Assembly (NCBI GenBank): GCA_963829055.1
Contig: CAWHHI010000003.1
Location: 352,001 to 416,000 of the forward strand
Length of the DNA: 64,000 bases
Source: an uncultured Gemmatimonadaceae bacterium
GTDB lineage: Bacteria > Gemmatimonadota > Gemmatimonadetes > Gemmatimonadales > Gemmatimonadaceae
Direction: 5' to 3'
Part shown: piece after piece, positions 35,520 to 39,539 of the stretch
How positions within the stretch are numbered: the first letter of the stretch is position 1
Layout of the letters: every line of letters begins with the position of its first letter
Notes under the pieces: generated by a model
The model's input: the letters and a program-made list of their open reading frames with translations, nothing else
Told to the model about the DNA's origin: nothing
The model's database searches: none
Position numbers and translations under genes: made by a program

Positions 35520-36408
35520 GTGAGCGATTCGCCACGACGCTTCGGCCGCGCGCTGCGCCTGAGCGCGCGTAAGCGGCGGATGGAACGCCTGTACGACGTC
35601 ATGTATTTCGGCGGCTGGCCCTCGTGGCTCGCCCGCCCGCTCGGCTTGCAGGGCCGCCTTCGACTCGAGACGCATCAGTTCTCGGTCGACGCCGGTGAAG
35701 GGCCGCCGGTTCCTCCGCTCCGCATCGCATTTGCCTCTGACCTCCACGGCGGTCCCGGCACGCATTCGGCCACGATTCGCCGGGCGTGTCGCCTGTTGGC
35801 CGAGTCGAAGCCTGACCTGCTGCTGTTAGGCGGCGACTTCGTGTCGTTCCACGCCCGCCACGTCGAGGGCGTTCTCGAGGCGATCGACGGCATCGACGCG
35901 CCGTTAGGCAGGCTCGCGGTGCTCGGGAACCATGACCTCATCGCTGACGACGCCTACCTCGTGCGCCGCCTCGCGACGATCGGCGTACGCACGCTCGTGA
36001 ACGAGAACGTGCGGTTGCCGCCGCCGTACGATCGGCTGTGGGTCTGCGGGCTCGACAACACTGAGCAGGGCACCCCGGACGGCCGCGCGCGCGGTCGCGG
36101 GGGCGGATGGCATTCGTCTCATGCTCATGCACTCGCCGGACGGCCTGTCAGCGTTAGGCGACGAGCCGTTCGCCGTCGGGTTCACGGGCCACGTGCACGG
36201 CGGCCAGTTCGTGCTGCCGGGCGGCAAGTCGCTGATCTCCTCCAAGGGCCCGTTCAGCCAGCGCTACCTCTATGGCGGTGTGTTCGAGCTCGGGCCGCCG
36301 GGCCAGCGCATCCTGCTCGTCAGCCGAGGCATCGGCCAGGGCTCGCTGCCGATGCGCTTCAACGCGGACCCGGAAGTCCACGTGTGTGACCTGTCATTCC
36401 GAGCGTAG
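35520..36408 (+). CDS. Metallophosphoesterase (YkuE-like), frameshifted near 36080
   Basis: SDLH, GGDFV, LGNHD, LMHSPD, TGHVHGGQ, VSRGIG. Confidence 0.88.
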
Positions 36409-36541
36409 TTGTCATTCCGACCGTAGTTGTCATTCCGAGCCGAAGTCGAGGAATCGAGATCGTCTTGGTAGAGGGGCCCGCCAACCGTCAGGATGGTCAT
36501 TCCGGAGCGGCGGTTTGTCATTCCGAGCGTAGCGAGGAATC
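36392..36541. repeat. CGTC-type REP-like cluster, copy 3 (tandem left arms)
   Basis: Five GTCATTCCG(A/G) arms in the same orientation plus GTCGAGGAATC and GGTAGAGGGGCCC core. Confidence 0.85.
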
Positions 36542-36603: not shown

Positions 36604-36632
36604 TTGTTTTCGGCGTTTGTTCGGTATATTCT
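36604..36632 (+). promoter_or_regulatory. Putative promoter with SOS-box-like direct repeat
   Basis: TTGTTT-17bp-TATTCT with TTCGG-N6-TTCGG (TTTC-N7-GTTC) in the spacer. Confidence 0.4.
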
Positions 36633-36681
36633 GTTTCCCCGCCGTCGCCTGTCGCGTCGGCGCTGACGACGGGAGGTGCCA

Positions 36682-37380
36682 GTGCCGAAGCACGAGTTGG
36701 TGTTGGACGCAGGCGAGTACGCGCCGGTTGCCGACCGCATCACGCTGTTCTACGCCCGCTACCCCACTGGGCGCATCCTCACTCGGCTCATCTCGCGAAC
36801 CCGGTACGAGATCACCGTGCAGGCGTTCGTCTTCCGGTCGGTAAGCGAGGAGCGACCGTCCGCCACCGGTCTCGCGTCCGAACGCATCGGTGACGGCGAC
36901 ATCAACACCGTCGCCTGTCTCGAGAACACCGAGACGTCCGCCATTGGCCGCGCGCTCGCGAACCTCGGTCTCACGGCGTCGTCGCATCGGCCGAGTCGCG
37001 AGGAGATCGACAAGGCGAATCGCGAGCGCGTTCGTCGCGTTTCGGAGCCTGCGCCGGCCCCGCGATCGCCAGTCTCGCCGCGTGGCGGATCGGCGCAGCC
37101 TCCTGCGGAGAAGCCCGCACCACCTTCGCCGAGCCTAACGAGGCGTGCAGCTGGGGTGAGTGCGGCGGGTAGCAACTCGATGCAGCGCCGCGCCGATCGC
37201 GTGATGGACGCGCTCGATCTGCTCGATCAGGCCGAGCGCGCCGGCCTCCCGCACAAGCGCGCGCGGCGACTTCGCGATGCGCTCACCGAGCCGGCGGCGA
37301 GCGTCGTCACCGTCGAGCGTGTGGAGCGGATGATCCGCGCCTGGACCGCCGCCCGTCACGCCACGCATCTGCGCCTGTAA
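36682..37380 (+). CDS. Phage-type Rad52/Sak-like single-strand annealing protein (putative)
   Basis: GGGAGG RBS; YAPVADRITLFYARYPTGRI...ATGLASE...LENTETSAIGRALANLG...RPSREEI; Pro-rich linker and helical tail. Confidence 0.6.
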   Translation: MPKHELVLDAGEYAPVADRITLFYARYPTGRILTRLISRTRYEITVQAFVFRSVSEERPSATGLASERIGDGDINTVACLENTETSAIGRALANLGLTASSHRPSREEIDKANRERVRRVSEPAPAPRSPVSPRGGSAQPPAEKPAPPSPSLTRRAAGVSAAGSNSMQRRADRVMDALDLLDQAERAGLPHKRARRLRDALTEPAASVVTVERVERMIRAWTAARHATHLRL

Positions 37381-37407
37381 CACCCCGGTGTCAGTAGGAA
37401 GAGAAGG

Positions 37408-37575
37408 TGTCATTCCGAGCGATGCGCGCGGCGAGTCGAGGAGCGTTGTCATTCCGAGCGGCGCCGCGAAGCGGCGCAGTCGAGGAATCGAGTCCCTGCC
37501 GAGTAGAGGGCCCTCTACCCGGACGATCGCGATTCCTCGACTGCGCGCCTGCTCGGCGCTCCGCTCGGAATGACA
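37408..37575. repeat. CGTC-type REP-like palindromic element, copy 4
   Basis: TGTCATTCCGAGCG x2 ... GTCGAGGAATCG ... GTAGAGGGCCCTCTAC ... CGATTCCTCGAC ... CGCTCGGAATGACA. Confidence 0.88.
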
Positions 37576-37601: not shown

Positions 37602-38402
37602 ATGCGAATCGAGAGGCAGCAGCACGTGGAGAACGCCGAGTCGTGGACCGATCACGAGCTGTTGCAGCGAATGCGCCGCGACGATGCGGTCGCCATCCGG
37701 GAGTTCTACCGGCGTTTCACTCCCGTGCTCTGGAAGGAGGCGCGTCGCGCGCACGTGCAGCCCGCGCTGCGTGACGACCTCGCCATCGACTGTCTGAGCG
37801 ATTCCGCCATTCATCTCATGCAAGCGACCGTCGCCGTTCCGTCGAACCTGACGGGCTATCTCGTCGCCGCGTTCCGCCACCGGCTGGCGAACGATCGCCG
37901 CGCGACGAAGCGCCGTCTCGATGCTGGCGCCGCCGCGGTCTCGTACGGCTTCGACGAGCGGGTCGTGCGCGAGGTCTGCTCCGAGGCATCACTGCGCGCG
38001 AGCGCGGGGCCGGCCGCCGAAGCGCCCCCGCTATCACCCGTGCTCGAGCGGCTGTCGCGCGTCATCGACGCCGGCATCACCGACCAGGAGCGGCAGATCC
38101 TGCGCTGGATCAGCGCGGGCATCCCACAGCGTCTCATCGGTGAATGGTTGGGGATCACGCATAACGCGGCGCGTGTGCGCGTGCTGCGGTTGCGCGATCG
38201 TCTCATCGAGGTCGCGCTTCGATACGACGGCCCGTGGCTGCCCGGCGAGCGAGACGAGTTGTACGCGTTCTTCCGCCGCTGTGGTCTGTCGGAGCGCGCC
38301 CTCCGTGCAAGCCAGGCACGCGAGCAAGGAGCGCCGAGTGGCGGCGCACCGGAACGGAGCCGGCCGCAGGCTGGCCGCAAGTCACCAGAGGAGGACCAGT
38401 GA
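37602..38402 (+). CDS. Divergent ECF-like sigma-70 factor with C-terminal extension
   Basis: Region-2-like DHELLQRMRRDDAVAIREFYRRFTPVLWKEARR and LTGYLVAAFRHRLANDRR; region-4 HTH ITDQERQILRWISAGIPQRLIGEWLGITHNAARVRVLRLRDRL. Confidence 0.7.
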   Translation: MRIERQQHVENAESWTDHELLQRMRRDDAVAIREFYRRFTPVLWKEARRAHVQPALRDDLAIDCLSDSAIHLMQATVAVPSNLTGYLVAAFRHRLANDRRATKRRLDAGAAAVSYGFDERVVREVCSEASLRASAGPAAEAPPLSPVLERLSRVIDAGITDQERQILRWISAGIPQRLIGEWLGITHNAARVRVLRLRDRLIEVALRYDGPWLPGERDELYAFFRRCGLSERALRASQAREQGAPSGGAPERSRPQAGRKSPEEDQ

Positions 38403-39142
38403 GATACGACGACACCACGCCCCCCGCGTCCGAGCGCGCCGGTATCGAGCGCGCGAAGGACCTTCTCGTTCGCGTCGCGGGTGACCGCGCCATGGAGCGG
38501 CTCGATCCACTGGACCCGTCGGAGGCCCCGTTTCTCGAGTGGTACGCGCGCGAGGCGCGGTTGACGTTGTCGGCGGCGGACCAGCAGAAGCTCGAAGCCG
38601 GCGCCGATCGGTTCGTGCGTGCCGTGCTCGCTCGCCGCGGCGTCGAGCGGACGCGTGTGCGAGAGGTCGCGGCCGAACCGGAGAGCGCCCCGGCGTGGGA
38701 GGAGGGGACGCTGGCGCAGGTGGTCGCGGCGGCAGCTCGCGTTAGGCACGCACCGGCGCTGGAGCTGTCAGTTGCGGCTGGCGTCGGGCGCGAGCTCTGG
38801 GATGAACCGTGCGAACGCTGGATTCCACTGCCGGACGGCGCGCCGGACGGGCGCTACGTCGCGCTGCGAGTGACGGGCGACAGCATGGTGCCGCTGCTGC
38901 ATGACGGCGACACGATCCTCGTGAAGCTGGGAGATGAGCTCGTGCCTGACGCGGTAGTCGTAGCGCGTGTGCCGGATGGCGGGTACGTGGTGAAGCGAGT
39001 CGGCGGACTCGCGGGCTCGCGGGTAGAGCTGGAGTCGTTCAACCCGGACTATCCACCCATTGTCATCCCGCGCGATCCGTCGCTCGTGTTAGGCACCGTG
39101 CTGCTGCGCTGGTGCTCCCACGGCGATCGCTCGGTGCACTGA
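38399..39142 (+). CDS. S24 (LexA/UmuD/CI-type) autopeptidase lacking an HTH domain
   Basis: GAGGAGG RBS, GTG start overlapping the sigma TGA; cleavage site SVAAG, catalytic RVTGDSM and VVKR, LESFNPDYPPI. Confidence 0.85.
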   Translation: MRYDDTTPPASERAGIERAKDLLVRVAGDRAMERLDPLDPSEAPFLEWYAREARLTLSAADQQKLEAGADRFVRAVLARRGVERTRVREVAAEPESAPAWEEGTLAQVVAAAARVRHAPALELSVAAGVGRELWDEPCERWIPLPDGAPDGRYVALRVTGDSMVPLLHDGDTILVKLGDELVPDAVVVARVPDGGYVVKRVGGLAGSRVELESFNPDYPPIVIPRDPSLVLGTVLLRWCSHGDRSVH

Positions 39143-39257
39143 GACGCAGAGCCGAGCCGTCGAGTGACCATCGAGTAACAGGGCGGTGTCACTCCAGACA
39201 GAGGGGAGCGCGTCATTCCGACGCACTCGAGGTGTCCCGAGGTTCTGGAGGATGAAG

Positions 39258-39539
39258 ATGCGTCGCTTCATTGAGCTCGTCATTCGTGTTCGTCGGCTCG
39301 TCGCCCGCACCCCAGGAGGCGAGGCGGTCATCAAGGGACGCGCACAACGGACGACGAAGCGTCGGTTGGGCGGGAGGCTCACGGAATTCTCCTTCCGCCT
39401 CGCCTTCATGATCGACCTCGCGTACGTCGGCATCGGAGCACTTGGCGGCACGGCGGTCGGGCGAGCGCTTCCTGCGGCGCCGCCGCCCAGCGACCGTAGC
39501 GCGATGATCTGCAGCGCCTACCCGACGCCGGGCCGCTGA
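39258..39539 (+). CDS. Small basic hypothetical membrane protein
   Basis: GGAGG 6 nt before ATG; Arg-rich N-terminus then hydrophobic segment LAFMIDLAYVGIGALGGTAVG; followed by a hairpin. Confidence 0.5.
   Translation: MRRFIELVIRVRRLVARTPGGEAVIKGRAQRTTKRRLGGRLTEFSFRLAFMIDLAYVGIGALGGTAVGRALPAAPPPSDRSAMICSAYPTPGR

Follow-up and report, generated by a model that had tools for sequence, protein, structure and literature searches.

In a 64,000-nt stretch of DNA from an uncultured Gemmatimonadaceae bacterium (contig CAWHHI010000003.1, assembly GCA_963829055.1; the window), the gene of a divergent sigma factor of the extracytoplasmic function (ECF) type is overlapped at its 3' end by the gene of a protein with an S24 self-cleavage domain, here called the partner. 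The system is real, conserved, linked to the SOS response and built from known parts. We lean, with modest confidence, towards reading it as a second-tier SOS switch with two locks, gated by LexA and by activated RecA (RecA*), in which the partner serves as the anti-sigma factor. Comparison across loci supports the gene architecture, the catalytic residues, an SOS box, covariation of the sigma with a compact motif, and a 7-bp spacing within that motif. All coordinates are positions within the window, and the genes, promoters and box described lie on the + strand.

The sigma (266 aa, 37602..38402; sequence, profile and structure model) and the partner (247 aa, 38399..39142; PF00717 and model) share the letters GTGA at 38399-38402, and a GAGGAGG ribosome-binding site stands at 38389-38395, 4 nt 5' of the partner's GTG, its last G being the end of the core site. 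Both open reading frames (ORFs), the overlap and the ribosome-binding site are thus as the original prediction, made from the sequence alone, had described them, and the conservation of the pair on which it depended is clear. Sigma homologs are found in 15/61 relatives, one of these (E 8e-4) outside the family, and in 23/401 genomes of the phylum, from two families of one order, Gemmatimonadales. The 40 distinct sigma loci comprise 34 followed at once by the partner, four cut by contig ends and two without it. In the opposite direction, 80 genome loci of the partner (79 titled Gemmatimonadota, one unidentified) have the sigma directly upstream in 71 cases and no room for it in nine, with none missing it, and 80 metagenome loci have it in 70 cases, the other 10 being without room; the sigma is therefore present in 71/71 genome and 70/70 metagenome loci with room. 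The junction is an overlap in 65 of the 69 cases measured. The partner sits in the +1 position, overlap-coupled to the sigma, a placement like that of an anti-sigma factor, and the pair is near-obligate in Gemmatimonadales. Because the locus sets of the different searches overlap, pooled analyses were clustered by sigma identity. At locus L018 (2868-3392) the partner is directly followed by another, truncated copy of the sigma and by a fragment of the N-domain. In P0267 and P0372 the sigma sequence reads in frame into the partner N-domain, and these are either natural fusions or frameshift artefacts.

By its modelled fold and its residue code, the sigma is of ECF type, with sigma2 and sigma4 domains only. 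The model has a sigma2 domain at 17-114, a conserved linker (S127 E128), a sigma4 helix-turn-helix (HTH) at 161-207 and C-terminal helices at 216-241, these last being the C-terminal extension already noticed in the sequence. The match to TIGR02937 (E 3e-8, 33.5 bits) is below the cut-off of 42.9. The model resembles ECF sigmas (Foldseek best E 8.6e-3), and it aligns with region 2 of SigW over 94 residues (VIA Z 10.6, root-mean-square deviation (rmsd) 2.6). The protein had been said to have no DAED motif; the stretch that we take to be meant by 'DAED' reads LRDD, so that the motif does differ, but the acidic pair is retained. Kinase-activated ECF sigmas are a recognised ECF type. The sigma does not belong to it, as no Ser or Thr replaces the acidic pair.

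The partner belongs to the S24 proteins but is no HTH repressor of the LexA/CI type. PF00717 matches at 124-233 (E 2.7e-19, 69.4 bits, cut-off 23.3), and the cleavage site A127-G128 (codons 38777-38782) and the dyad S162 (38882-38884) and K199 (38993-38995) are invariant in 40 aligned homologs, so the S24 machinery is intact, as was claimed. In a 136-row alignment, xAA followed by G is found in 136/136 rows, S162 in 134/136 and K199 in 131/136, the remainder being gaps; the Ala-Gly count is partly selected, because the search pattern that yielded many of the rows itself includes AAG. The C-domain of the AlphaFold2 model (pLDDT 85.7) has a LexA-type fold, with VIA Z 14.3 to 3k2z (rmsd 2.6, 123 aligned) over 101-241 only, and alignments of the model with the complete structures of LexA and lambda CI likewise start at residue 99-101. 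The N-terminal part is modelled as three long helices (10-34, 40-55 and 59-84), which form the three-helix N-domain (10-84). It had been described as helical, about 120 aa long and lacking an HTH. The helices and the lack of an HTH hold, as HTH profiles gave no match to 33 partner N-domains and the helices, in the model of the full-length protein, are 16-26 residues long, but the length does not: because the helices end at residue 84, the domain is about 85 aa plus a linker. No membrane helix is seen in the model by eye, and the partner appears soluble.

The N-domain has no Pfam, PHROG or Atlas match, which shows neither a new fold nor its absence, and nothing better than E 0.8 was obtained against PDB sequences. 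A profile of it found 152 proteins in 1.84 billion, and of the 86 listed at >=195 aa, 80 carry an S24 domain. Three proteins of about 196 aa (P0313, P0356 and P0374) combine the N-domain with a degenerate C-terminal part that does not score as S24, and these are possible uncleavable paralogs.

The operon promoter, read by eye, is of the sigma70 type (36604..36632; -35 TTGTTT, 17-bp spacer, -10 TATTCT), and comparison across loci places a LexA-type SOS box, TTCGG-N6-TTCGG, inside its spacer (36609..36624). The box is found in 14/14 upstream regions first examined and in 52/57 testable loci, and a TTG before it and a TAnnnT-like hexamer after it recur in most orthologous promoters. In several loci without operon gene 1, it stands directly ahead of the sigma. 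A position-specific scoring matrix (PSSM) built from 10 sites of other genomes ranks the operon site first in this genome, followed by sites at an HTH gene, an Rv2578c-like radical SAM gene, two TIGR03916-like genes, an imuA-like gene, gyrB, a DUF3072 gene, ruvB and one lexA; recA scores 16.5 (rank 24). Sites scoring >=19 number 13 here, against 3-4 in shuffled sequences.

The same box was sought in 29 genomes without the partner (two weak matches proved to be lexA ORFs, and one unpublished genome was dropped). The strict box is ahead of lexA in 29/29 of these genomes, and at recA a PSSM score >=12 is reached in 27/29 and the strict box in 16/29, with the box in 0/58 control windows for lexA and 0/58 for recA. 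Because lexA and recA carry it in genomes without the module, the box belongs to LexA and not to the module. The partner and the sigma were also considered as binders of the TTCGG box, and both are ruled out by the module-less genomes. As the operon promoter carries the phylum's LexA-type box, the module forms a second tier under LexA, which probably binds at the operon box. The output had been predicted to be positive, SOS-like and independent of a repressor. The link to DNA damage stands, but the independence does not, given the LexA-type box in the promoter, and the outputs found are not repair genes. One low-coverage metatranscriptome contained 0.09 of words (14 contigs, depth 0-7), with no transcript ends or strand.

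This genome has recA and clpX, and it has two lexA genes (G000:C16:430587 (-) and C16:988864 (+); L003, L001). One lexA carries two TTCGG-type boxes and is frameshifted in the assembly, like trpD and the non-ribosomal peptide synthetase/polyketide synthase (NRPS/PKS) genes, probably through long-read indels, and the second has no TTCGG box upstream. Further SOS-box matches at G000:C16:358627 (+), C3:162871 (+), C19:88574 (+) and C16:333958 (-) are ahead of an XRE-HTH gene, a DUF3072 gene, gyrB and, more weakly, rex.

A second regulatory element, GTAAC-N7-TGTCA, occurs ahead of the sigma (37377..37393, putative sigma-specific promoter A, putatively autoregulatory, overlapping the upstream stop codon here) and again after the partner (39175..39191, putative promoter B, ahead of the downstream gene). 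A PSSM from six related loci gives three sites in this genome scores of 26.6-28.2, the next being 20.0. That next site, a palindromic variant (GTGACA-N6-TGTCAC, G000:C16:726901 (+)), lies before an unannotated ORF and is a possible fourth target. A locus-specific 20-mer common to the pre-sigma and post-partner regions, above the 99th shuffle percentile, was found in 27/66 loci. When sites were paired by the upstream pentamer alone, identity reached 0.47-0.66 from +5 to +13, and most other downstream positions had 0.2-0.45. Upstream variants include GTAAC, GTCAC, GTCCC, GTGAC and GCGAC, and downstream variants TGTCA, CGTCT, CATCT, TGTGC and CACCT.

These variants covary with the sigma. Sites were selected with the tested base masked. 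Among the 445 columns of the two proteins, residue 192 is then the top one for motif base 3 (z 15.9): V or L goes with A in 22/22 clusters, and K, Q or R with C in 19/22 (4/48 clusters with other bases were dropped). Residue 97 is the top column for the first downstream base (z 9.7), with N accompanying T in 18/20 clusters and other residues accompanying C in 20/21 (5/46 dropped), and residue 191 is the top column for base 5. N97 and V192 are the states of the sigma in this genome. Residues 191, 192 and 196 align with R171, S172 and R176 of sigma-E, which are -35 base readers (PMC1540707), and R196 is invariant in 142/142 sigma rows. Residue 97 is the first position (D) of a DxxR-type motif, the -10 reader (PMC3397946, PMC12019637), with R100 in 136/142 rows. 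This indicates that the sigma reads the compact motif, GTAAC through sigma4 and TGTCA through sigma2.4. As expected of an ECF sigma, the covariation points to an autoregulatory promoter read by residues of sigma4.2 and sigma2.4, with few independent contrasts.

The spacer of the motif is abnormally short. Both elements were predicted from residues 192 and 97 with the spacer left free, in the 59 clusters left after 11/70 with residues outside the code were set aside. A 7-bp spacer was obtained in 33/59 clusters, and spacers of 15-18 bp in 1-3 each, while controls with the upstream or downstream element swapped gave 1 and 3 clusters at 7 bp. An alternative series of 9-, 11- and 13-bp spacers was a mis-parse, and the uniform 7-bp parse fits. 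ECF promoters are expected to have about 15-18 bp between -35 and -10, and the sigma's motif does not. Published spacers are 16 bp for Tt-RpoE1 (tGTTAC-N16-CGTC, PMC3397946), 17 bp for sigma-H of Mycobacterium tuberculosis (10.1101/534826) and about 14 bp for sigma-B of Staphylococcus aureus, the shortest sigma70-family value in the literature compared (PMC11156646). A usual -10 was sought at +16 to +22, and no fixed element was seen there, only a weak GTG/T-purine signal. A T-purine step at +19/+20 is present in 18/33 sites, against 0-9 in windows away from there, which fits the +1 position expected if the downstream element is the -10. The spacer is 9 bp below N16, nearly one helical turn, so that sigma4 would stay on roughly the same face of the DNA, at about -25. 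The conserved linker (S127, E128) and the C-terminal helices of the sigma are candidates for the remodelling of the holoenzyme.

Taken together, these features suggest the following switch. As the first lock, LexA would act through TTCGG-N6-TTCGG to repress the sigma70 promoter that drives the Slr1353_N-sigma-S24 operon. As the second, the co-translated partner would keep the sigma inactive through its three-helix N-domain. On filaments of RecA on single-stranded DNA (ssDNA), the partner would cleave itself at A127-G128, as its S24 fold and invariant residues imply, leaving an N-fragment that ends in VAA, AAA or IAA (xAA in 136/136 rows), which is a likely ClpX tag. A VAA-type ending acts as such a tag in LexA and RseA, for which the papers searched gave no support in print. 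ClpXP removes the N-domain of RseA (PMC7593790), and it may remove the partner fragment in the same way. The freed sigma would recognise the lineage-specific compact motif, amplifying its own expression and that of the partner from promoter A, and would turn on promoter B and a few distant targets, namely cassettes with RHS repeats, genes for small proteins and for a Ser/Thr kinase, and an NRPS/PKS cluster. Once repair is complete, partner that is still uncleaved would close the loop. Such a switch would operate in the manner of PrtR/PrtN or sigma-E/RseA, RecA* being the trigger. A stronger version is put forward tentatively, as possible rather than probable: that the partner is the first anti-sigma factor cleaved on RecA filaments, that the sigma founds a class using '-25/-10' promoters, with sigma4 nearly one turn closer than in described holoenzymes, and that the whole is an AND-gated, self-amplifying SOS branch whose fast-diversifying code fires RHS-toxin-like, small-protein and NRPS/PKS genes.

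Several observations weigh against the two-lock switch. Two sigma loci (L026 and L051) have no partner in cis. Searches of Pfam and of PDB sequences matched the N-domain to no known anti-sigma domain; such domains diverge strongly from one another (PMC7826278). Genome-wide, the bare 10-letter pattern shows no enrichment, with 3 occurrences at spacer 7 and 0-3 at other spacers. No motif common to the A and B regions was detected in 39/66 loci, and among the 27 positives two are artefacts of tandem repeats. The residue-base code had first been noticed by eye in the very data on which it was tested. Its phylogenetic independence is weak: supported branches give only 2 independent contrasts (the best tree has 7 and 9 state changes), too few for a sign test to become significant. 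For other bases of the motif, z was as high as 10.6 with implausible columns of the partner. At 10/33 promoter-A sites the motif overlaps the upstream stop codon, and the other 23/33 are apart from any stop. Finally, a 7-bp spacer conflicts with the fixed positions at which RNA polymerase anchors sigma2 and sigma4 (PMC11156646).

The short spacer is also what two other explanations start from. UmuD is an HTH-less S24 protein that is activated by cleavage. By analogy, the partner or its cleavage fragment could be a required co-factor that remodels the holoenzyme, with cleavage activating rather than releasing the sigma, and the abnormal spacer, which calls for remodelling, the obligate pairing and the presence of UmuD among the structural matches of the partner model all agree with this. 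However, the sigma's own linker and C-terminal helices could do the remodelling, and L026 keeps both copies of the compact motif without a partner in cis, although there are other copies in its genome. The xAA ends of all 136 N-fragments fit destruction, but would equally fit any LexA-type site. A co-factor role is considered rather unlikely. Alternatively, the sigma-like protein could be a stand-alone DNA-binding regulator, activating or repressing outside the holoenzyme and controlled by the partner as in the two-lock switch. A sigma4 seated on the beta-flap cannot bridge 7 bp (PMC11156646), the stretch for binding core polymerase is divergent, and sigma4 also resembles LuxR/NarL HTHs. Against this, the downstream element follows the sigma2.4 code and is followed by the T-purine start signal at ECF distance, and no sigma70-type promoter is apparent by eye beside the sites, so that a role outside the holoenzyme appears distinctly unlikely.

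Of the characterised S24 proteins that have an N-domain, nearly all act as repressors (PMC9578287), and the partner might be a non-canonical LexA-like repressor whose helical N-domain binds the compact motif or the SOS box, in the manner of PrtR/PrtN or the Bacteroidetes S24 repressors. The motif is near-palindromic in this genus and helix 3 is basic (median +3). However, most lineages have an asymmetric motif, helices 1-2 are acidic (median -3) and no HTH is present; moreover, the SOS box exists in 29/29 genomes that have no partner, and the two informative bases track columns of the sigma and not of the partner. Repression by the partner is thus improbable. Least probable is a degenerate prophage remnant held by synteny, with two functionally uncoupled proteins: operon gene 1 has phage homologs and the distribution is patchy (23/401 phylum genomes), but at 30-45% protein identity the catalytic residues, the overlap, the SOS box and a co-evolving promoter code are all kept, and no relative of the partner was found in IMG/VR.

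For the two-lock switch, the genes behind the compact motif are the candidate outputs. The pattern of this genus gives 14 sites in 5/5 same-genus genomes and none in 5/5 module-less genomes, and the patterns of two other lineages have matches in 5/5 genomes each. In 18/80 loci (70 with room) the gene next after the partner encodes a secreted-looking protein of some 180 aa that has no Pfam match, and the large ORFs behind it contain RHS repeats in 7/7 tested. Two further ORFs examined encode an RCC1-repeat protein and, judged by eye, an AAA-type regulator. Three genomes of the genus have a distant site ahead of a Ser/Thr kinase gene, and another lineage has six distant sites ahead of a gene for a 62-aa hydrophobic peptide. 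The third site in this genome precedes a short ORF, a thioesterase gene and NRPS/PKS genes, which its transcript would reach. No repair genes were found behind the motif among the sites examined. The 62-aa peptide gene is conserved in L304-L309, about 55 nt after a CGTCT-type promoter; three copies are present in G152, and an RHS-like fragment lies 3' of it in L305.

Parts of the system resemble known ones. The partner shares the S24 fold, the Ala-Gly site and the Ser-Lys dyad with LexA, lambda CI and UmuD, but it has a family-specific three-helix N-domain without an HTH and is always translationally coupled behind a sigma gene, and it is itself under a LexA-type box. Sigma-E/RseA and AlgU/MucA (PMC7593790) similarly combine an ECF fold, a +1 partner, an autoregulatory promoter and a cytoplasmic N-fragment, possibly removed by ClpXP here; in contrast to them, the partner is apparently soluble, would cut itself on DNA damage without DegS or RseP and has no known anti-sigma domain detected, and the spacer is 7 bp. 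In the PrtR/PrtN-pyocin and AlpR cascades of Pseudomonas (PMC9578287) an S24 protein also gates a positive regulator, with antagonistic products among the outputs after DNA damage, but PrtR is a DNA-binding repressor, whereas the positive regulator here is a sigma and control is apparently post-translational plus LexA. The promoters of Tt-RpoE1 and sigma-H have very similar -35-like and -10-like words and the same reader residue positions, and differ in the spacer. The alphaproteobacterial LexA box GTTC-N7-GTTC (PMC3323433) is likewise a direct repeat of 11-bp period, at lexA, recA and imuA, but the conserved core in Gemmatimonadales is TTCGG-N6-TTCGG. No such system was found in the literature searched, mostly open-access papers and including passages of the main text and of one supplement of the ECF classification (PMC7826278), in which supplement S24 is mentioned only in the context of ECF02; the same kind of papers yielded nothing on a Gemmatimonadota LexA box. 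If true, the two-lock switch would join RecA-triggered self-cleavage with anti-sigma release, a combination not found in that literature, and would break the spacing rule of sigma70-family promoters. The two-residue code would then be a natural set of orthogonal, damage-inducible sigma/promoter pairs, the third site a route to waking a silent NRPS/PKS cluster, and the module a tie between DNA damage and competition in an abundant, barely studied soil phylum.

The flanking genes had both been proposed as possible members of the module, and both appear to be so. Operon gene 1 (36676..37380), Slr1353_N (PF27148)-like by ESM Atlas, is ahead of the sigma in 55/63 loci with room. It matches PF27148 Slr1353_N clusters in the Atlas at 0.96-0.97 and phrog_11717 (E 7e-25, function unknown), and a Pfam scan gave no family match. 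Its naming as an annealing protein survives as a lead: one Slr1353_N Atlas cluster holds 10% SSAP_Sak members, and the gene may encode a Sak/Rad52-type annealing protein. In L022 (about 2256-2880, -) and L098 its place behind the SOS box is taken by an S24-like gene that is catalytically dead. The downstream gene (39252..39539), behind putative promoter B, encodes a 95-aa small protein with a hydrophobic C-terminal stretch and no Pfam or PHROG match. Homologs are found in 6/80 loci, all with partners 83-86% identical, and it is a putative output gene confined to close relatives. Repetitive extragenic palindrome (REP)-like GTCATTCCGAGC repeats are present at 36390-36540 and 37409-37575, with about 150 and about 400 blastn matches in this genome, respectively. 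The second, a genome-wide repeat in the sigma leader with no strand assigned, is outside the conserved module, and it was not found in most orthologous sigma-leader spacers. Here it lies between promoter A and the sigma start, where it could affect the sigma transcript.

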